This document shows, one piece after another, positions 7,101 through 48,879 of a stretch of DNA of 51,739 bases. Location of the stretch: sequence record NC_049822.1; one strand, given 5' to 3'. Position 1 is the first letter of the stretch, and each line of letters begins with the position of its first letter. This DNA comes from Escherichia phage vB_EcoS_G29-2. Below the pieces are notes generated by a model. That model was not told where the DNA came from. It searched no databases and worked only from the letters and a program-made list of their open reading frames with translations. The position numbers and the translations under genes are program-made.

Positions 7101-7330
7101 TCACGATTAACCTTTCAGAGAAGCAAGCATATCAAGTGATGAGCTACATTTCTGGATTTGGTATGGAAGTCGCTATGGGTGAAGTTGCGGATCAGATTTG
7201 CCGTCAACTTACACCAGCACCAACGCGAGCGGCAGAAACTGCCGCATGGCGTAACGAGGCAGGATACATTCAGAAGGCTATTGAATACTGGAAGCGCAAA
7301 AACGAGACTGCGGAGGATGCAGGATTATGA
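7097..7330 (+). CDS. hypothetical protein
   Basis: ATGA start/stop overlap with upstream gene. Confidence 0.5.
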   Translation: MITINLSEKQAYQVMSYISGFGMEVAMGEVADQICRQLTPAPTRAAETAAWRNEAGYIQKAIEYWKRKNETAEDAGL

Positions 7331-7572
7331 TTTACATTCACTACTACCAGATCGGGACAAACGAAAACAAGCAGGAGCGCAGAGCAATTTGTGACACGCT
7401 CGACGATGCGAAAGCACAGCAACGCGTTTTGGGTGGAGTAATTCAGGCTTTTGAGCCAGTGGAAGACATAGAGCACCGAGAGCATTTGAAAGAGATTGTT
7501 GTTGATGAAATTTCATCACTAATCGACGACATGACAAATCACGGGCCTGGTTCTCCGTGGGAAGAGGCCTGA
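7327..7572 (+). CDS. hypothetical protein
   Basis: ATGA overlap; 81 aa, acidic. Confidence 0.5.
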   Translation: MIYIHYYQIGTNENKQERRAICDTLDDAKAQQRVLGGVIQAFEPVEDIEHREHLKEIVVDEISSLIDDMTNHGPGSPWEEA

Positions 7573-7650
7573 TCGACGGAGTGGGATTGCGCTAAAGTTG
7601 CAACGCTTAACAACTTTCGTAAGTTGCTCGACGATTTTTAATTAAAATTG

Positions 7651-7698
7651 AATGCCTCATACAGCGAACAGGACGCATTTTGACGAGGCATTTTTTAG
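7651..7698 (+). terminator. rho-independent terminator
   Basis: stem ATGCCTC/GAGGCAT with T-run. Confidence 0.5.
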
Positions 7699-7711
7699 GT
7701 AAGGTGATTCA

Positions 7712-7840
7712 ATGGATAACTACATAAAACCGTCGCAGCGGTGCGCACAGAAGCAAGAGGAAGCATTAGAACGCGGCGATACTGAAACGGCAATGCACTA
7801 TTTCGAAATGTACAACTTGTGGAAGGGTAGAGGTCTGTAA
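7712..7840 (+). CDS. small hypothetical protein (42 aa)
   Basis: not in track; RBS AAGGTGA; follows terminator 7651-7698; TAATG overlap with next gene. Confidence 0.35.
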   Translation: MDNYIKPSQRCAQKQEEALERGDTETAMHYFEMYNLWKGRGL

Positions 7841-8070
7841 TGTTTGGAATGAACGAGGCACAATTCAACGCTGCAAAACGCCAGGCTAAGAAGTGCGGCG
7901 AGGCAATGAAAGCGGATGTTGAAAAGCGCGGAAAGTATGTTGATGAAGTTATGAAGGGCATTATTGCCGAACATTATCAGCCAGTTGCGCCAATGCTGAC
8001 AATTACCCAATTCATCTGGTTGTGTGGTTATCTTCGTGGGCGATGGGGAAACGCATTTGACCGCGAATGA
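7840..8070 (+). CDS. hypothetical protein
   Basis: 76-aa ORF. Confidence 0.5.
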   Translation: MFGMNEAQFNAAKRQAKKCGEAMKADVEKRGKYVDEVMKGIIAEHYQPVAPMLTITQFIWLCGYLRGRWGNAFDRE

Positions 8071-38037: not shown

Positions 38038-38511
38038 TTAGCAATTAGTGCTTTCAGGTTTATACAGGAATCCGCCAGGTTCATAATCTGACATTCTTAC
38101 CACTCGCAACATTTCACGCTTATCACATCTCTTTGTGAGCGGTTTGCCATTGGAATCAAATCGCAGATCTGGACGGCAGAATGACGCGCGATAGCCTTGA
38201 CAACCATATTTCTTGTAATCGTTATGCACCTTTTGAGCGCCAGCGGCTGAAATCATACCGCGAACGCGCCACTGATTTACAGTTTGCTGGCTAACGTTAA
38301 GACGCTTTGCCATTGCTGACACGCTGCCGTAATACTCAATAAGAATGTCAAGCCGTGCTTTTAGTCCGGCGCGCACTTCATCTTTTAAAACATAGTATCC
38401 TGTAGGGCGCTTGCGCTTTTTCTTATCTTTACCCCGTCGAGTTCCGTTATTGCCATTAATTGTGCGCTTGTCAATCTTGCCTGTTGATACCGCGATTCGC
38501 TGCTCTTTCAT
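38038..38511 (-). CDS. HTH DNA-binding protein (putative regulator)
   Basis: helix-turn-helix SVSAMAKRLNVSQQTVNQWRVRG; basic K/R-rich N-terminus. Confidence 0.6.
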   Translation of the reverse strand: MKEQRIAVSTGKIDKRTINGNNGTRRGKDKKKRKRPTGYYVLKDEVRAGLKARLDILIEYYGSVSAMAKRLNVSQQTVNQWRVRGMISAAGAQKVHNDYKKYGCQGYRASFCRPDLRFDSNGKPLTKRCDKREMLRVVRMSDYEPGGFLYKPESTNC

Positions 38512-38523
38512 TATTCATTCTCC

Positions 38524-38569
38524 AATAGCATTTTTTGTTAAACGATGATTTAATGATTGTGTATTATAC
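38524..38569 (+). promoter_or_regulatory. conserved motif promoter for helicase operon (no spacer hairpin, -10 TATTAT)
   Basis: CAATAGCATTTTTTGTTAAAC then 19 bp then TATTAT. Confidence 0.5.
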
Positions 38570-40640
38570 ACTCCAAATGGCATTACTCAAAGGTTTTAGA
38601 ATGATTCCAAACATTGAAAAGCAAATATCAGCACTTGGTGAAGCGGTAATTAAATCCATTCAGGAGCGGTTCACTGTTGGCGATATTGTGCCTTACCCTT
38701 ACCAGTGCGTTGCATACGCTGAGATCGCAAAGCGTATGAAAAATTATGAGCATCCATTCTTTGTTAAAGCGTCGGTATCGGCTGGCAAAACATTGATGTT
38801 TGCAATGGTTGCTCACCAGTGCCGGAAAATGGGCTTAAAAATGATGGTTCTTGCTCGCCAAGCTGAGATTGTGGATCAAGATTCTGAAGAGATAACAAAT
38901 CTTGGCGTGCCGAACTCAATCTATTGCGCAGGGCTGAAGACAAAGAGCGCATACTTTCCGATCGTTGTTGGTTCTGAGGGAACTGTAGTTAATGGACTGT
39001 TTAAAGCGCTTGGCGACTATGTTCCGCACGTTATCGGGATTGACGAGTGTCACCAGGTGGATTGGGAAGACCTTGCCGACGCCATAGAGAAAGATGAGTC
39101 ATTTTTACAAATGACGACAAAGAAAGGCGAAAGAGTACCAAATCCAGATTATGACATAGAGAGCGATAACGAGTGCGAAGAGTTCCTGATTGGTGAGGAT
39201 GGCTTGCCAATGGAGGGAACAGGCCGCACACAATACACTGTCATTATCATGGAAATGATGCGACGTTGCAGGAAAGCATATGGCCATGAACTGCGCATAT
39301 TTGGCATGACTGGATCGGAGTTTCGCGGTGTAGTCCCAATACTGGTAGAAGATAAAAAGCAGAAAGGATTTTGGCGTGAACAGGTTACTAATATTGACAC
39401 CAACTACCTGATCAAGTTCGGTTCTGTTGTTCCGACTAATTTTGGCGACGTTGGCGATCTCGGGTATGACCTTTCAGAGTTTGAGGCATCAAGCGAGGAT
39501 GGCGTTGCAGACTTTGACGCTAAAACGCTTCGCAGGATGGAACAAAAAATTCATGAAGAAGCGACCATGACAAAGCGCATCATGGCGAAAGTGCACGAGA
39601 TCTGTAAAAACCGTAACGGTGTACTTGTGACATGTGCAGGCGAAAGGCACTGTAAAGAGGCGGCGGCAGCATTGCCGCCTGGAACGACTTACAGGATCAT
39701 TACTGGTAAGACTGGCGATAACCAGCGCAAGGAGTGGTTGAAAGAAGCATACGAGGGAAAGGTTAAATACATCTTCCAGGTGCAGGCGCTAACTACTGGC
39801 GTTAACGTGCCGTTTTGGGATACGTCTGTTATTCTGCGTAAGATTGGATCTCTTACGTTGCTGATTCAGCTTTTAGGGCGCGGAATGCGACTGCTTAAGA
39901 AATGGCATAAGGAGCAAGGATTCAAGAAAGATGATCATCTCGTCATGGATTTTTCAGGAACGATGGACGAGCTAGGGGAGCTTTATTTTGATCCGATACT
40001 GGAACAGGCGCAGCACCAGAAGCGATTCAGAAATGGTAAAGATCCGAAGCCTTGTCCTGTTTGCGGAACTCTTAACAGCTATTATGCTCGTCGTTGTATG
40101 CACGTAGACGAAAACGGCAACAGATGCGAGTGGTTCTTTAAATTCAGGACATGTGATGATCAGATTGACCCGCGCACTAAAAAGATTATTCATCGCGGTT
40201 GCGGAACGAAGAATGATATTGCGGCCAGGGTATGCAGACATTGCGACATGTCATTGATTGACCCTAACGAGAAGTTAAGCGGAAAGCACTACACAAAAAA
40301 CGACTGGTTTCAGGTGCAATCTTTCTCGGTTGACATGACGAAAAACCAGAAAGGGATAATATTTAATTATGAGCTTTCCGATGGCATAGACACTTTCAGG
40401 GCGAGAGAGATATTTTTCCCTGAATCTGAGAGCCAAATTTGCCGCGCAAAATGGCGAAGCGTTGCTCTTAAGCACATACCAGATCGCCGTGTTGCTGGCA
40501 TGGTGGCGAGCTATCGTAATGCACGTAAAATCATGCAATATGTGAATCACATCATGCCACCATCGCGTGTAACTCACCGCAAGACTAGCAAGGGTGAAGA
40601 TAATTTGTACAAGAAGGACTTTAATTATGGCAATGACTGA
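38535..40640 (+). CDS. ATP-dependent helicase (SF2, DEAH-type) with C-terminal zinc ribbons
   Basis: Walker A SAGKT, DEAH-like IGIDECHQV, C-terminal CPVCG...C...C clusters; start uncertain (38535 TTG, ATG 38578 or 38601). Confidence 0.75.
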   Translation: MLNDDLMIVYYTLQMALLKGFRMIPNIEKQISALGEAVIKSIQERFTVGDIVPYPYQCVAYAEIAKRMKNYEHPFFVKASVSAGKTLMFAMVAHQCRKMGLKMMVLARQAEIVDQDSEEITNLGVPNSIYCAGLKTKSAYFPIVVGSEGTVVNGLFKALGDYVPHVIGIDECHQVDWEDLADAIEKDESFLQMTTKKGERVPNPDYDIESDNECEEFLIGEDGLPMEGTGRTQYTVIIMEMMRRCRKAYGHELRIFGMTGSEFRGVVPILVEDKKQKGFWREQVTNIDTNYLIKFGSVVPTNFGDVGDLGYDLSEFEASSEDGVADFDAKTLRRMEQKIHEEATMTKRIMAKVHEICKNRNGVLVTCAGERHCKEAAAALPPGTTYRIITGKTGDNQRKEWLKEAYEGKVKYIFQVQALTTGVNVPFWDTSVILRKIGSLTLLIQLLGRGMRLLKKWHKEQGFKKDDHLVMDFSGTMDELGELYFDPILEQAQHQKRFRNGKDPKPCPVCGTLNSYYARRCMHVDENGNRCEWFFKFRTCDDQIDPRTKKIIHRGCGTKNDIAARVCRHCDMSLIDPNEKLSGKHYTKNDWFQVQSFSVDMTKNQKGIIFNYELSDGIDTFRAREIFFPESESQICRAKWRSVALKHIPDRRVAGMVASYRNARKIMQYVNHIMPPSRVTHRKTSKGEDNLYKKDFNYGND

Positions 40641-41046
40641 TAAAGGCGATTATCTGGAGTTTTACGAAAGAGATCCGACGGATACGCTAAAAGAGGAATC
40701 ACACCAGATCGGGGCGTTTCAATGGTTGACTTATGCTTACCCTGAATTGCTGGCATGGCATACGAAAAACGAGGGCGACAAGGGGATCGCCACCGCAATG
40801 ATGGATCAGCAAGCCGGACTCGTTAAGGGCGTAAGTGATTTTATCATCCTGATTGGATTAAAAGGCCGTTATCCGTTTGCAGCAATTGAGATGAAGCGCG
40901 TCAATAAGTCTGGAAAGGGTAAGGCTTCACCAGTCAGTAAGGAGCAAAAAGCCTTCTTACGACGTGTGCGCGAGCTTGGCGGATTCGCTGCCGTAACATA
41001 CGGATATAAGCAATTCATGATCGCTGTAGAATACATGATGAAATAG
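40627..41046 (+). CDS. VRR-NUC domain nuclease
   Basis: PD-(D/E)xK-like SDFIILIG...AIEMKR; start overlaps helicase stop. Confidence 0.6.
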   Translation: MAMTDKGDYLEFYERDPTDTLKEESHQIGAFQWLTYAYPELLAWHTKNEGDKGIATAMMDQQAGLVKGVSDFIILIGLKGRYPFAAIEMKRVNKSGKGKASPVSKEQKAFLRRVRELGGFAAVTYGYKQFMIAVEYMMK

Positions 41047-41088
41047 CACTTTTTGTTAAAACAGGCGCGAAGGATTGCGCCATAATAA
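41042..41088 (+). promoter_or_regulatory. conserved motif promoter (hairpin GGCGC/GCGCC, -10 CATAAT)
   Basis: motif then 19 bp then ATAATA. Confidence 0.55.
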
Positions 41089-41120
41089 CACCAGTTCAAC
41101 AAGCAACAGGTAATTAAGAA

Positions 41121-41822
41121 ATGATCAAAGAAACCGAAGTGACATTTGAACAAATCGAACGAGAAACATTCATTGGCAATGCTCTTGCTACCGGAGGCTA
41201 TTACCAGGCTGTTAAACCAAATCAATATTATAAAGTCACTGGCAACCGCTATAACGGCAGCAATACGCCGGACGTTGTGCGAGATTTGTGGTCTACGCCG
41301 TCTGAGCTTGTCGCATGGATGGAAATCGAATACGGTGATTATGACATCGACGCTGCGGCAAGCAAAGAAAATGCTGTATGTGAAAAATTCTACAGCAAGG
41401 AAACAAATTGCTTAAAGCGTTGGTGGGGTAGTAATAAGCATATCTGGCTGAATCCACCGTACAGCAATATAACGCCTTTCGTTAAGAAAGCGATTGAGCA
41501 AATGGAGCACAATAACCAGATCGACATTCTGTTACCTTGCGACACATCGACAGGATGGTTTTATGAGGCACAACAGAAAGCAGCGGAAATAATCTGGATC
41601 ACTGGCGAAGTTTACCAGGAGGAAGGAATAGAATATTCCAGAACTGGACGGCTTGCTTTCACTTCAGCGCTTACAGGTAAACCAGTGCAGGGAAACAACA
41701 AAGGAAGCGTTATTTTCATCATGCGCGAACTTAAAGAAGGTGAGCAGCAGAAAACTCGATACGTTAAGATCAGCGACATTTGCCCGTCAGTGGCAGAGCG
41801 TCGAGCAAGAAAGCGGAGTTAA
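41121..41822 (+). CDS. dam: DNA N6-adenine methyltransferase (phage Dam family)
   Basis: catalytic motif WLNPPYS (NPPY); size typical of phage Dam. Confidence 0.75.
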   Translation: MIKETEVTFEQIERETFIGNALATGGYYQAVKPNQYYKVTGNRYNGSNTPDVVRDLWSTPSELVAWMEIEYGDYDIDAAASKENAVCEKFYSKETNCLKRWWGSNKHIWLNPPYSNITPFVKKAIEQMEHNNQIDILLPCDTSTGWFYEAQQKAAEIIWITGEVYQEEGIEYSRTGRLAFTSALTGKPVQGNNKGSVIFIMRELKEGEQQKTRYVKISDICPSVAERRARKRS

Positions 41823-41826
41823 TATC

Positions 41827-42066
41827 ATGCAGAAAGAAAGAAGCGTTTATTTAAATGAAACTGGAGAGTGGTTGTTATTTCGCGCTATGGTTTGCGAGGC
41901 GCTTGATAAAAACGAGTTCATAAAACCGCTATTAGGTTGTGATCCGTGGGAGTTTACAAGCGCGCTTGATATGAGCTTTGAGGAAACAAGAAAACTACCG
42001 CTTGAAAAATGGCATGAGCAGATCGGTAAAGACTTGCAAGAGTTTTACGAATCCGCGACAAAATAG
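41827..42066 (+). CDS. hypothetical protein
   Basis: RBS GGAG; stop in motif copy at 42062. Confidence 0.45.
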   Translation: MQKERSVYLNETGEWLLFRAMVCEALDKNEFIKPLLGCDPWEFTSALDMSFEETRKLPLEKWHEQIGKDLQEFYESATK

Positions 42067-42107
42067 CACTTTTTGTTAAAAAGCCCGGCCCTGTGTCGGG
42101 CATAATT
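42062..42107 (+). promoter_or_regulatory. conserved motif promoter (hairpin GCCCG/CGGGC, -10 CATAAT)
   Basis: motif then 19 bp then ATAATT. Confidence 0.55.
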
Positions 42108-42138
42108 ATTTCATCAAAACGAACAAGAGGAAAACAAA

Positions 42139-42318
42139 ATGGTTGTTTACGATCCACGCGCTTTTAAAATTGCTCAAGAAGTTTCACGCGAATCTGTTGC
42201 TGGCGGTTCGGTTAACGGCTATCAGTTTGATTGGTCGGCAGCAATGACCTTGCTTAAGGTTGCATATGGTCACGCGCCAATTGAAACAGCGGAGGCATAT
42301 TATAAGCATGAAGGTTGA
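42139..42318 (+). CDS. small hypothetical protein (59 aa)
   Basis: not in track; RBS AAGAGGAAAA downstream of motif promoter. Confidence 0.4.
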   Translation: MVVYDPRAFKIAQEVSRESVAGGSVNGYQFDWSAAMTLLKVAYGHAPIETAEAYYKHEG

Positions 42319-42550
42319 ACAAGGTAGGCAGGCTGTATGGGATCACGCAAAGGAATGTGGGATCTCTGAAGACATAGCCAGGATAGCAAAATATTTTGAT
42401 ATTGCTGACATAAGCATTATAAGCGGCGACAAAATGACTTTTCTCAATGAACGCCCGCGCAAGATGCATCGCGTCCCAGCAATACCAACAAAGATTGATT
42501 TCAAAGAGGCTATGGCGAAAATTCGCGAGCCGCGCAAATACTACAAATGA
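42308..42550 (+). CDS. hypothetical protein
   Basis: ATG with GGAGG upstream, overlaps previous ORF. Confidence 0.4.
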   Translation: MKVEQGRQAVWDHAKECGISEDIARIAKYFDIADISIISGDKMTFLNERPRKMHRVPAIPTKIDFKEAMAKIREPRKYYK

Positions 42551-42648
42551 GGATTATTATCATGTGGCGTTTGTTACTTTTGCCCTTACCTGTTATGATG
42601 GCGATCTCTATTGTATATGTTGTCATAATGAGATAAGGAGAATTTTTG

Positions 42649-43764
42649 ATGAAGCAAATCAAAATCACAGATGAACAATTTATCAATGAGCGCAAGCAGG
42701 GAAAGACATATAAGCAGATAGCTAATGAGTATGGTATGAACGTTCGCAGCATTGAGCGACGCGCAGCGCGACTTGCAAAGCAAGGTAAAGTTACAACCAT
42801 CGGATCACCTGGCTTTGGCGTTACTGGAGAATCAAAGCTAATTGATAAAGATGGCAATGTGGTTATGACATGGATTAAGACAAGCAAGGACCGCGAGCAG
42901 TTAGAAGCATTAATGCAGGCCGCTATGGATGCATTTAGCGAAGAAGTTCCGCGACTTGATCCGCAACCAGAATCACAAAAGGATTATAGCGAGACGTTAT
43001 CACTGTATCCGATCTTTGACATGCACTTGGGCGCAATGGCGCATAAGCATGAATGCGGAGAGAATTGGGATACAGCAACAGCAGAGCGCGTAATGAATAA
43101 TTTCATTGATTATTCTATCCAGTGCGCGCCGGATAGCGAAAAAGCTGTTTTGCTGATTGGTGGCGATATGCTTCACAGTGACGGACTTGAAGCGGTTACA
43201 CCTGCAAGCGGTCACGTATTGGATCAAGATAGTCGATACGCAAAACTTGTTTATGTTGCCATCCGGTCAGTGCGTCGAGCAATCACAAAGCTGTTATCAA
43301 AACATAAAAACGTAGAGATTCAGATAATTGAAGGCAACCACGACCAAAGCGGCATGATCTGGTTGCGCGCAGCAATGGCGGCAGCATATGAGAATGAGCC
43401 GCGAGTGCATGTTGATGTGTCTCCGCGAGTGGTTCATCACACACAATATGGCAAAACATTCCTGGCATACCATCATGGGCACACTATCCGCAAGCCTGAA
43501 ACATTGCTCATGATGTGTGCGGCAGACTGGCGCGAAGACTTCGGAAATTCAAAAATGATGTATGCTCACGTAGGGCACTGGCATCATCAGACAGTAACTG
43601 AAACAAGCCTGGGCATTGTTGAAGTGCATAGCACTATGGCGGCAAAAGATGCATATGCGGCGCGCGGTGGATGGCGTTCTCGACGCCGTGCGGCTGTTAT
43701 TGTTTACGATAAAGAATACGGAGAGGTAGGGCGATTTATGCATTATCCAGAAATGGCTTATTGA
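42649..43764 (+). CDS. calcineurin-like metallophosphoesterase with N-terminal HTH domain
   Basis: motifs GGDMLHSDG, GNHDQ, GHWHH; N-terminal YKQIANEYGMNVRSIERRAARL; RBS AAGGAG. Confidence 0.65.
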   Translation: MKQIKITDEQFINERKQGKTYKQIANEYGMNVRSIERRAARLAKQGKVTTIGSPGFGVTGESKLIDKDGNVVMTWIKTSKDREQLEALMQAAMDAFSEEVPRLDPQPESQKDYSETLSLYPIFDMHLGAMAHKHECGENWDTATAERVMNNFIDYSIQCAPDSEKAVLLIGGDMLHSDGLEAVTPASGHVLDQDSRYAKLVYVAIRSVRRAITKLLSKHKNVEIQIIEGNHDQSGMIWLRAAMAAAYENEPRVHVDVSPRVVHHTQYGKTFLAYHHGHTIRKPETLLMMCAADWREDFGNSKMMYAHVGHWHHQTVTETSLGIVEVHSTMAAKDAYAARGGWRSRRRAAVIVYDKEYGEVGRFMHYPEMAY

Positions 43765-43807
43765 ACTTTTAATCATTAAAATATAAATATAAATCATAAA
43801 TTTAATT

Positions 43808-43838
43808 GGGCGTGGCATTTTGCTTCGCCCTTTTTTTA
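43808..43838 (+). terminator. rho-independent terminator before lysis cassette
   Basis: GGGCG-loop-CGCCC + TTTTTTTATT. Confidence 0.65.
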
Positions 43839-43910
43839 TTCCTTTTTGTGCGTTCAATGGTTAGGATACAATCAATTAATTGTTGACTTTTATCTACAGG
43901 AGATCTAATC

Positions 43911-44126
43911 ATGAAAGATTTTTTAAACGCTGCAACTTCCGGCACTGGCGGAGCGTCAATCACTGGCGCGGTAACTGGTCAAACAACTATTGCAATAGCC
44001 AGCTTCGTTTTGATGGCTGCATTTGGTATGTGGGGCGCTTATCTTCGCTGGCGTGATAGTAAGGCGCTACGTGACGCGCTTGAATGCGGTGATATTAAGA
44101 AAGCTATTGAGATCAGAGGTAAATAA
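43911..44126 (+). CDS. holin
   Basis: 71 aa, single [22 protein letters not shown], charged C-terminus, directly upstream of endolysin. Confidence 0.7.
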
Positions 44127-48128: not shown

Positions 48129-48173
48129 ATTATGCCAGGCTTTTACACCTGGCTTTTAACAAAAAGTGCTATT
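48129..48173 (-). promoter_or_regulatory. conserved motif promoter (hairpin GCCAGG/CCTGGC, -10 CATAAT)
   Basis: minus-strand motif; same hairpin sequence as copy at 1254. Confidence 0.55.
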
Positions 48174-48879
48174 TTGCGTTTGCTTCAAAGACGGCGCGAG
48201 CAAAACCGCGCGGTGTGAGGGAGCGGATCATCTTTGTGCGAGACGATTTTCCGCCAGTTTTGGCCCAACCAGGATTATCCTTGTCGCCATCTTTAGGAAT
48301 GATTGTTGCGCGCGGAGGAATAACAAATCCGTTTCCAGTCCAAAGGCATGTTTTCTTAAAGTACCGATCCCGTGCCGGAATAATATCAGGAAAGTCGGGA
48401 TGTTTATCATCTTCCGGCAGATAGCCAGCATAATCGCACGGATGGAACGTATAATCAGGCTTGCGCCATAGCGTTGACAGCTTGCCTACAGGATTCTCTA
48501 TCATGTACGGAACACCGAAATAATCAGCAATTTGCGCCGCTATTTTGCAAGTGTCGGCGGCTTCATCCTGGAACGATGGATTCTCAATGCGTTTTTTAGC
48601 CCAATGGCGAGATCCGCTATTTGCAAGGTCAGTGCATGGAGGGAACGCCATAATAAAATCAGGCTTACCCCAATTTTCAAGTTTTGCGGTATATTTGAAT
48701 AGATCATCAATCCACGCGTTAACGTAAAAGATATTGTCATGGATTATGCGCACTGAGTGGTAATCACCGTGATCAGCATCATCGTAATTAAAGCAAATGC
48801 ATTTATATCCAGCATCAGCCCAATCTTTAACGGCTTTACCGGATCCATCAAACAAAGAGAAAATTAAACCCTTATACAT
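48169..48879 (-). CDS. putative DNA (cytosine-5) methyltransferase, compact
   Basis: motif I-like LFDGSG, motif IV-like FPPC, motif VI-like ENPVG; RBS GAGGTGA. Confidence 0.5.
   Translation of the reverse strand: MYKGLIFSLFDGSGKAVKDWADAGYKCICFNYDDADHGDYHSVRIIHDNIFYVNAWIDDLFKYTAKLENWGKPDFIMAFPPCTDLANSGSRHWAKKRIENPSFQDEAADTCKIAAQIADYFGVPYMIENPVGKLSTLWRKPDYTFHPCDYAGYLPEDDKHPDFPDIIPARDRYFKKTCLWTGNGFVIPPRATIIPKDGDKDNPGWAKTGGKSSRTKMIRSLTPRGFARAVFEANAK

Follow-up and report, generated by a model that had tools for sequence, protein, structure and literature searches.

T1 Dam and its characterised relatives

The DNA methyltransferase Dam of phage T1 (M.EcoT1Dam, YP_003925.1, gene ST20, 237 amino acids) was purified and sequenced decades ago (Scherzer 1987 and Schneider-Scherzer 1990, cited in PMC10470545), and it is the counterpart of the gene examined here, which lies at positions 41121 to 41822 of the genome of Escherichia phage vB_EcoS_G29-2 (G29-2; NC_049822.1; the whole stretch of 51,739 nucleotides is the window). 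T1 DNA prepared from a dam− host is sensitive to DpnI, showing that T1 Dam itself generates GATC with N6-methyladenine (G6mATC), and DNA of a CRISPR-made T1 dam deletion from a dam− host is unmethylated and MboI-sensitive (PMC10470545). The host Dam methylates this mutant only partly; the deletion is viable, with the burst falling from ~52 to ~32 (~60% of wild type) even in hosts that lack the tested defence system (PMC10470545). According to the same study, T1 Dam is not significantly similar to its E. coli namesake (PMC10470545).

A second characterised member is M.Phi93DAM of Lactococcus phage Phi93 (140 amino acids), whose G6mATC product was established by single-molecule real-time (SMRT) sequencing together with DpnI/DpnII digestion, and which shielded DNA from DpnII in the phage itself as well as after expression from a plasmid (PMC4190342). 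Compared with these enzymes, the G29-2 gene very probably encodes the Hanrivervirus orthologue of T1 Dam, that is, a small single-domain DNA methyltransferase of the PF05869/TIGR01712 family that depends on S-adenosylmethionine (AdoMet). This identification is not new, as the gene is well known and both G29-2 and hundreds of related phage genomes already list it under the annotation DNA methyltransferase, and the locus shows no departure from the T1 paradigm.

The G29-2 gene belongs to the phage Dam family

The open reading frame (ORF) listing confirmed 41121..41822 on the + strand as an ORF of 233 amino acids with an ATG start, its end coordinate including the TAA stop codon. No longer rival ORF exists on either strand over this interval, where the overlapping ORFs encode 51–137 amino acids and are unsupported. 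An earlier note, made from the letters alone, had called this gene a phage Dam-type N6-adenine methyltransferase on the basis of its NPPY motif and its size, and had proposed a profile hidden Markov model (HMM) search. That search did return the methyltransferase family: the protein matches the Pfam family PF05869 "Dam" with an E value of 6.4e-61 (205.4 bits against a cut-off of 28.1), with no other Pfam family at E≤1, and the NCBIfam equivalog TIGR01712 "phage N-6-adenine-methyltransferase" with 184.6 bits against a cut-off of 97.05. PHROG 111, 'DNA methyltransferase', was also matched (E=3.4e-83), and the top PADLOC model was PDLC03721, "orphan methyltransferase" (oMTase; E=6e-103). Membership is thus borne out by curated HMM cut-offs as well as by the motifs NPPY, W-x-T-P, D-x-A-A-S and G-R-x-x-F, all of which were found. 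The family is large, comprising 6301 clusters at 50% identity with E≤1e-3, only 12 of which reach E≤1e-30, and 1842 records of the phage collection match G29-2 Dam. In some homologues (five representatives), the PF05869 domain is located C-terminally in much larger proteins of 497–663 amino acids, which are fusions.

The size noted earlier also agrees with a phage Dam, since the 233-residue protein is 67% identical to T1 Dam (237 amino acids) over 218 residues. Both proteins share the Pfam family, an N-terminal extension, a hairpin insertion and a basic C-terminal tail, and the T1 gene order (helicase, a 138-amino-acid gene corresponding to VRR-NUC in G29-2, Dam, a small ORF, terminator) matches that of G29-2. 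The two phages nevertheless belong to different groups (T1, Tunavirinae/Tunavirus; G29-2, Tempevirinae/Hanrivervirus), and their Dam proteins differ at one third of the residues, with no alignment over the first ~15. G29-2 also carries a second, C5-like methyltransferase, whereas the T1 annotation shows no second DNA methyltransferase.

The relation to M.Phi93DAM is more distant (PF05869 E=6e-34; 36% identity over a core containing DLWSTP, D-x-(A/C)-(A/S)-(S/T) and NPPY). Like G29-2 Dam, M.Phi93DAM is an orphan; however, it is devoid of the N-terminal 45 residues, the hairpin insertion and the C-terminal 30 residues seen in G29-2 Dam, its gene is flanked by those for the terminase subunits instead of belonging to a replication block, and its host is Gram-positive. 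The Dam proteins of Stx phages and the lambdoid nin region (e.g. Escherichia phage PA32 AKI87031, 175 amino acids; PF05869 E=6e-65) are likewise orphans with ~35–39% identity and the same motifs, but they represent a short form without the N-terminal extension and are encoded between ninB and ninE of temperate phages. T1 Dam (67%) and M.Phi93DAM (36%) share the GATC target, a specificity that therefore extends across the family, which makes GATC the best prediction for G29-2 Dam; by analogy with both, the enzyme would methylate the N6 of adenine in GATC.

Conserved motifs and parts of the protein

Conservation was read from two alignments of homologues, one of 9 sequences and one of 70 diverse sequences. 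The parts of the gene and the evidence for each are as follows.

41121..41822, + strand: complete coding sequence of a T1-type Dam, an orphan AdoMet-dependent DNA N6-adenine methyltransferase (ORF, PF05869, TIGR01712, identity to T1 Dam, AlphaFold2 model).
41121..41255, + strand: N-terminal extension, residues 1–45 (the Pfam match begins at residue 46; predicted local distance difference test (pLDDT) score 52–72).
41283..41300, + strand: motif D55-L-W-S-T-P60 (W57, T59 and P60 invariant in the 9-sequence alignment).
41343..41363, + strand: D75-I-D77-A-A-A-S81, predicted strand beta-1 and loop, motif I-like (D77 invariant in both alignments; DSSP strand 76–77 in the model).
41445..41465, + strand: W109-L-N-P-P-Y-S115, catalytic motif IV at the end of predicted strand 107–110, with NPPY at 41451..41462 (sequence read-out and alignments).
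41604..41645, + strand: clade-specific beta-hairpin insertion, residues ~162–175, GEVYQEEGIEYSRT, between core strands (strands 163–167 and 170–174 in the model).
41646..41660, + strand: C-terminal core motif G176-R177-L-A-F180 (R177 and F180 invariant in both alignments).

The WLNPPYS motif pointed out in the earlier note was thus located at residues 109–115; N111 and P113 are invariant in both alignments, Y114 is invariant among the 9 sequences, and P112 reaches at least 90% among the 70. Across both sets, W57, T59, P60, D77, A80, N111, P112, P113, W146, G176, R177 and F180 are invariant or nearly so, and P60, D77, N111, P113, R177 and F180 are invariant in all 70 homologues, where T59 is conserved in at least 90%. 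By motif nomenclature, DLWSTP looks like motif X ('TP'), which stands ahead of motif I in gamma-class N6-adenine methyltransferases, and it may be the equivalent of that motif; the D75–S81 element would bind AdoMet, and the G176–F180 motif probably helps to form the pocket that receives the flipped adenine.

The remaining parts are restricted in distribution. In the 9-sequence alignment, the N-terminal extension is found only in the 'long-form' T1-like proteins of G29-2, T1 and ATCEA85, the minimal members of 140–175 amino acids being without it; the beta-hairpin is present in the G29-2, T1 and Vibrio phage proteins and is a gap in the Stx-phage, Dhillonvirus, Lactococcus and Geobacillus members. 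We regard the N-terminal extension as a candidate DNA-binding element and the hairpin as a candidate DNA-recognition element, in an enzyme without a separate target-recognition domain.

Predicted fold and relation to other adenine methyltransferases

The 70-sequence alignment served as input for an AlphaFold2 model, which had a mean pLDDT of 87 (above 90 at residues ~45–215) and a predicted template modelling (pTM) score of 0.80. The model contains a helix after DLWSTP, a short strand at D77, a strand at 107–110 leading into NPPY and a beta-hairpin at 163–174, and its alternating helices and strands are typical of class I methyltransferases; the predicted fold is the class I (Rossmann-like) fold of AdoMet-dependent methyltransferases. 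Compared with the minimal members of 140–175 amino acids, the T1-like long form has three additions, namely residues 1–45 (modelled with low confidence), the hairpin at ~162–175 and a basic C-terminal helix at ~217–233. Neither the alignment nor the model of G29-2 Dam contains a separate target-recognition domain, and GATC may instead be read by these three additions together with the core loops.

G29-2 Dam has no sequence relatives in the PDB, and Foldseek with the model gave no match at E≤1e-3. The predicted fold is nearest to TaqI-like adenine methyltransferases. The single best structural neighbour was an mRNA cap adenosine methyltransferase and the other top matches were DNA N6-adenine methyltransferases, while E. 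coli Dam (8.3), T4 Dam (8.2) and DpnM (7.8) had lower scores and fewer aligned residues than these top matches. Profile comparison with hhalign (70-sequence profile) gave a probability of 11% against E. coli Dam, over 54 columns around motif IV DPPY only, and of 0.5% against EcoKI HsdM, where the aligned region was again motif IV (NPPF) only.

The order of motifs in G29-2 Dam is TP (59–60), the acidic strand at D77 and NPPY (111–114), with a gap of only 34 residues between D77 and N111. E. coli Dam, T4 Dam and DpnM can be regarded as functional analogues of G29-2 Dam, being orphan or solitary enzymes for N6-adenine methylation of GATC that carry (D/N)PPY and adopt a class I fold; however, these alpha-class enzymes carry their target-recognition domain between motif I and motif IV, and a gap as short as 34 residues therefore rules out their architecture for G29-2 Dam. 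Membership in this family (alpha-class, MethyltransfD12) was accordingly rejected, since there was neither a profile match nor a target-recognition domain inserted between motifs I and IV. The apparent motif order (TP, motif I acidic strand, NPPY) is instead that of M.TaqI, M.BseCI, CamA, type I HsdM and PCIF1, although these share only ~12–16% identity with G29-2 Dam and give no HMM match; gamma-class enzymes moreover have a large C-terminal recognition domain or a specificity subunit, whereas G29-2 Dam ends ~20–30 residues past the catalytic core. The order is hence compatible with a stripped-down gamma-type core, membership in the M.TaqI/HsdM type not being established by it. 'Dam' is hence right as the name of the family and, by prediction, of the target, with no common descent with host Dam implied. 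The name covers a lineage unrelated to E. coli/T4 Dam, and inferences should not pass between the two. How a core of 140–230 residues reads GATC without a recognition domain is a structural puzzle of the whole family rather than one specific to G29-2.

G29-2 Dam as an orphan methyltransferase

The earlier note had also described the enzyme as an orphan with no cognate nuclease. Two genes upstream of Dam are central to this point:

38601..40640, + strand: superfamily 2 (SF2) helicase with ResIII and Helicase_C domains, first gene of the T1-type block (Pfam; annotation of gp06 of the closely related Escherichia phage herni).
40627..41046, + strand: VRR-NUC nuclease gene, overlapping the helicase gene by 14 nt and ending 74 nt upstream of Dam (PF08774, E=1.3e-9).

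No restriction endonuclease was found among 81 of the 83 annotated features of herni (record positions 1–50,000), whose annotated nucleases are the VRR-NUC protein, a repair exonuclease and a RecE-like exonuclease. The G29-2 ORFs in segments that do not align to herni gave only a tail-fibre chaperone domain, a PNKP phosphatase and domains of unknown function, again with no restriction enzyme, and Pfam and PHROG identified none among the genes flanking Dam. Other members of the family have different neighbours, including ninB/ninE in Stx phages, another N4/N6 methylase in a Vibrio phage, terminase genes in Lactococcus phages, an upstream C5 methylase in Enterobacter phage ATCEA85 and an upstream ssb in a Geobacillus phage; in the Stx, Vibrio, Lactococcus, Geobacillus, Dhillonvirus, Proteus and ATCEA85 phages, the gene never adjoins a restriction enzyme. 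Together with the PADLOC oMTase assignment, these data support the orphan status of G29-2 Dam, as claimed, although small ORFs with no assigned function might still hide a novel nuclease.

The VRR-NUC gene directly upstream of Dam had been overlooked in the earlier note; it does not behave as a cognate partner. One could propose that Dam, VRR-NUC (a PD-(D/E)XK fold) and the ResIII helicase constitute a restriction-modification-like or exclusion module that attacks unmethylated host or competitor DNA while Dam shields the phage's own DNA. The three genes are indeed adjacent and co-directional, the trio is retained in all 22 T1-like loci, and the helicase carries the Pfam domain 'Type III restriction enzyme, res subunit' and has weak PADLOC matches to type IV enzymes via its C-terminal region. 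However, ResIII is a generic name for an SF2 helicase domain and the weak PADLOC matches run via Helicase_C only, so this domain was rejected as a sign of a type III system. No PADLOC restriction model matched VRR-NUC, and its functional PHROG matches, all weak, were to endonucleases and Holliday-junction resolvases only. VRR-NUC is moreover coupled to the helicase rather than to Dam, from which it is separated by 113–1115 bp among the 22 T1-like loci, with an annotated terminator within the gap in T1; neither helicase nor VRR-NUC occurs in any of the 58 loci from the other Dam clade, or in those phages of the Stx, Vibrio, Lactococcus, Geobacillus, Dhillonvirus and Proteus groups that were analysed. 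A nuclease held in check by methylation of the phage's own DNA would be expected to make loss of dam lethal, and the viability of the T1 dam deletion argues against such a self-directed nuclease. VRR-NUC was therefore ruled out as a hidden cognate nuclease (PADLOC, PHROG, spacing and clade distribution), and membership in a type II or III restriction-modification system was rejected given the coupling of the neighbouring nuclease to the helicase, its variable spacing to Dam and its absence from other Dam clades. We consider a module of this kind very improbable; the helicase and VRR-NUC are probably a replication/repair pair rather than a defence module.

GATC and other palindromes in the G29-2 genome

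The G29-2 genome contains 292 GATC sites, with an observed-to-expected ratio (O/E) of 1.03 that is the highest among the 4-base palindromes, most others lying at 0.51–0.85. Across the 22 T1-like loci, the median O/E is 0.99 for GATC and 0.865 for the remaining 4-base palindromes; loci of the Dam clade with 41–49% identity show moderate GATC avoidance (median 0.745), and the Dam-less phages lambda and T7 have ratios of 0.55 and 0.04 (6 sites), respectively. The GATC count in G29-2 is 1.5 times the base-composition expectation and 9 standard deviations above first-order Markov simulations, an apparent enrichment that the frequencies of the trinucleotides GAT and ATC account for in full, as the O/E of 1.03 indicates.

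Longer palindromes behave differently. Of the 64 six-base palindromes, 19 are absent, including AAGCTT, GATATC, CAGCTG, GCATGC, GTCGAC and GGTACC; among hexamers that are not palindromic the missing share is 3.1%, and in first-order Markov simulations 0.1 palindromes would be missing. G29-2 is thus clearly under type II restriction pressure, which is answered mainly by site avoidance. Removing every copy of a 4-base site is far more difficult, and GATC would be covered by methylation.

The spacing of GATC is unusually even: its coefficient of variation is 0.776, where random placement gives 0.995 ± 0.058, and no other tetramer among the 246 compared is as evenly spaced (z=−2.37). The longest stretch free of GATC measures 825 bp. 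The same evenness is seen in herni, but T1 is ordinary (z=−0.41), and Dam-less lambda (−0.76) lies near the median of 57 Dam-encoding loci (−0.97), among which GATC ranks first in evenness only narrowly. Even spacing was therefore rejected as a signature of Dam phages and is a lineage-specific oddity or chance. There are also no GATC clusters resembling the methylation-controlled pac site of P1, the peak local counts being at or below the random expectation.

Function of Dam: restriction evasion or phage physiology

The reading that we prefer is that Dam ensures complete GATC methylation of the phage genome, that restriction evasion is one narrow, plausible benefit, and that a second, physiological benefit exists in T1. 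Dam would be expressed from the replication-gene block (helicase, VRR-NUC, Dam) and would bind AdoMet via the D77-AAAS element; the GATC adenine would be flipped into the N111-P-P-Y114 pocket, where the methyl group would be passed to N6. In this way the ~292 GATC sites of a fast-replicating genome could be fully methylated, at a pace that host Dam alone would not match. The progeny DNA would then resist nucleases that cut unmethylated or hemimethylated GATC (MboI/DpnII-type and possibly host MutH), and the burst size could increase independently of restriction. This scheme draws on the family, motifs, predicted fold, orphan status, T1 orthology and synteny, and GATC non-avoidance found here, and on the GATC specificity, incomplete host Dam methylation and burst defect of the T1 orthologue; it presumes the same specificity at 67% identity, the roles given to individual residues and a choice of which nuclease pressure matters in nature.

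The further claim of the earlier note, that an orphan methylase is a classic anti-restriction device, holds only in part. It stands narrowly for GATC-specific nucleases sensitive to N6-methyladenine, as M.Phi93DAM does against DpnII in vitro (PMC4190342), and anti-restriction is accordingly plausible for G29-2 Dam only against GATC-specific, methyl-sensitive nucleases. In its broad form the claim is limited by the findings on the BASEL phage collection and by the burst defect of T1.

Several observations weigh against the preferred reading. Most Drexlerviridae of the BASEL collection are very sensitive to restriction-modification, and their methyltransferase genes show no pattern with resistance (PMC8594841). 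One BASEL phage, JakobBernoulli, encodes a Dam 99% identical to that of G29-2. To our knowledge, no restriction-modification system of the BASEL panel targets GATC, and the BASEL result hence limits the anti-restriction claim rather than refuting it. GATC methylation of T1 gave no protection from a GATC-directed Dnd system (PMC10470545), and an anti-restriction benefit has been demonstrated for no T1-like phage. The GATC figures show non-avoidance only, not positive selection, and T1 itself has a GATC O/E of 0.78. Finally, specificity is unreadable from sequence, and a protein that is 67% identical to T1 Dam could have a changed or relaxed target.

It is quite possible, if somewhat short of probable, that the same GATC chemistry is selected for phage physiology and that restriction evasion is a side effect, a reading that overlaps with the preferred one. 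MutH and SeqA would be kept off un- or hemimethylated GATC in concatemers, or methylation would act through recombination-dependent replication and headful packaging, in either case giving a larger burst. The T1 dam deletion reaches only ~60% of the wild-type burst in the absence of a GATC restriction system, even in a dam+ host (PMC10470545), and since this 40% loss occurs without a GATC restriction enzyme, another role is likely. Dam also lies in a replication/recombination block beside the helicase, VRR-NUC and repair exonuclease in 22 of 22 T1-like loci, and the absence of a link between methyltransferase genes and restriction resistance in BASEL (PMC8594841) as well as the even GATC spacing in G29-2 point the same way. 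On the other hand, the even spacing is repeated neither in T1 nor in the comparison of lambda with Dam-encoding phages, the distant family member M.Phi93DAM does block DpnII cleavage (PMC4190342), and Dam-less phages such as T7 purge GATC, which is consistent with nuclease pressure of whatever source. A stronger form of this idea would make Hanrivervirus Dam mainly a genome-maintenance enzyme, with dense, regular and complete GATC methylation barring MutH/SeqA or the phage's own helicase/VRR-NUC from replicating concatemers, and with the N-terminal extension, beta-hairpin and basic tail forming a new kind of GATC reader. It is suggested by the un-avoided and evenly spaced GATC sites and by the 40% burst cost of the T1 deletion, and we think it unlikely.

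Other alternatives concern the substrate. An adenine methyltransferase of the same family might act on a target other or broader than GATC, such as a relaxed site spanning several restriction specificities, given that specificity is not derivable from sequence, that a third of positions differ from T1 Dam (including the hairpin and both termini), and that the family is large and diverse with its 6301 clusters at 50% identity. Yet T1 Dam (67%) and M.Phi93DAM (36%), which lie on opposite sides of G29-2 Dam in divergence, both make G6mATC, and GATC has the highest O/E of all 4-base palindromes in the G29-2 genome, so we hold a different target to be distinctly improbable. That the true substrate is RNA or a small molecule, as the mRNA cap adenosine methyltransferase found as the best structural neighbour could suggest, is barely credible: the remaining top structural matches are DNA N6-adenine methyltransferases, and methylation of GATC in DNA has been proven for the T1 orthologue as well as for M.Phi93DAM (PMC10470545, PMC4190342).

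If the preferred reading of complete GATC methylation by the phage enzyme is right, G29-2 virion DNA is expected to be fully G6mATC whatever the dam status of the host, which bears on cloning, DpnI/MboI digestion and nanopore base-calling; the same modification would render the phage vulnerable to methyl-directed (DpnI-like) nucleases.

Genome setting, neighbouring genes and close relatives

G29-2, which has been described as a pSf-1-like siphovirus of ~51 kb with 44% GC (PMC6563267), has a Hanrivervirus (Drexlerviridae) genome with a GC content of 44.0%. The 1.8 kb around the gene are 100% identical to Escherichia phage herni (NC_049823; Drexlerviridae, Tempevirinae, Hanrivervirus), in which gp08, "DNA methyltransferase" (RefSeq coding sequence 7167..7868), is a 100% identical protein with coordinates offset by 33954. 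Elsewhere the G29-2 genome shares 92–99% identity with herni and, once circular permutation is allowed for, is collinear with it. Over the full length, the top match from the phage collection reached 95–96%. The exact Dam protein was found on 16 assembled contigs, none exceeding phage size, which fits a lytic phage rather than a prophage.

A search for related loci seeded with a 5-sequence alignment showed that the upstream gene order of helicase, VRR-NUC and Dam is kept in 22 of 22 T1-like IMG/VR loci and in 0 of 58 loci of the Dam clade with 41–49% identity (within 10 kb). Two features lie immediately downstream of Dam:

41827..42066, + strand: gene of 79 amino acids starting 4 nt past the Dam stop codon (herni gp09; PHROG 2676, of unknown function).
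42083..42101: terminator-like hairpin after the 79-amino-acid gene (counterpart of the T1 terminator annotated after ST19).

The 79-amino-acid gene is probably co-transcribed with Dam, and it is present in only 11 of the 22 T1-like loci. In a promoter and terminator scan of 38300..44000, the counts were not above the shuffled expectation, and the hairpin at 42083..42101 was the sole match to a terminator position annotated in T1. Three small conserved genes of 79, 59 and 80 amino acids (PHROGs 2676, 2180 and 2817) occupy 41827..42550 on the + strand, directly 3' of Dam.

The second methyltransferase of G29-2 is also a predicted orphan. It is encoded on the − strand at 48169..48879 (236 amino acids; herni gp21), carries the C5-cytosine-like motifs FDGSG, FPPC and ENP, and matches PHROG 757, 'DNA methyltransferase' (E=1.5e-85), with no Pfam or PADLOC model found at the thresholds used. 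The segments without alignment to herni include 34755..37034 (− strand), which encodes a tail fibre of 759 amino acids whose C-terminal part is a Peptidase_S74 intramolecular chaperone domain, and 32287..33486, which holds two ORFs of 149 and 163 amino acids with no family match. Such segments, the tail fibre included, represent the expected mosaic variation in host-range genes.

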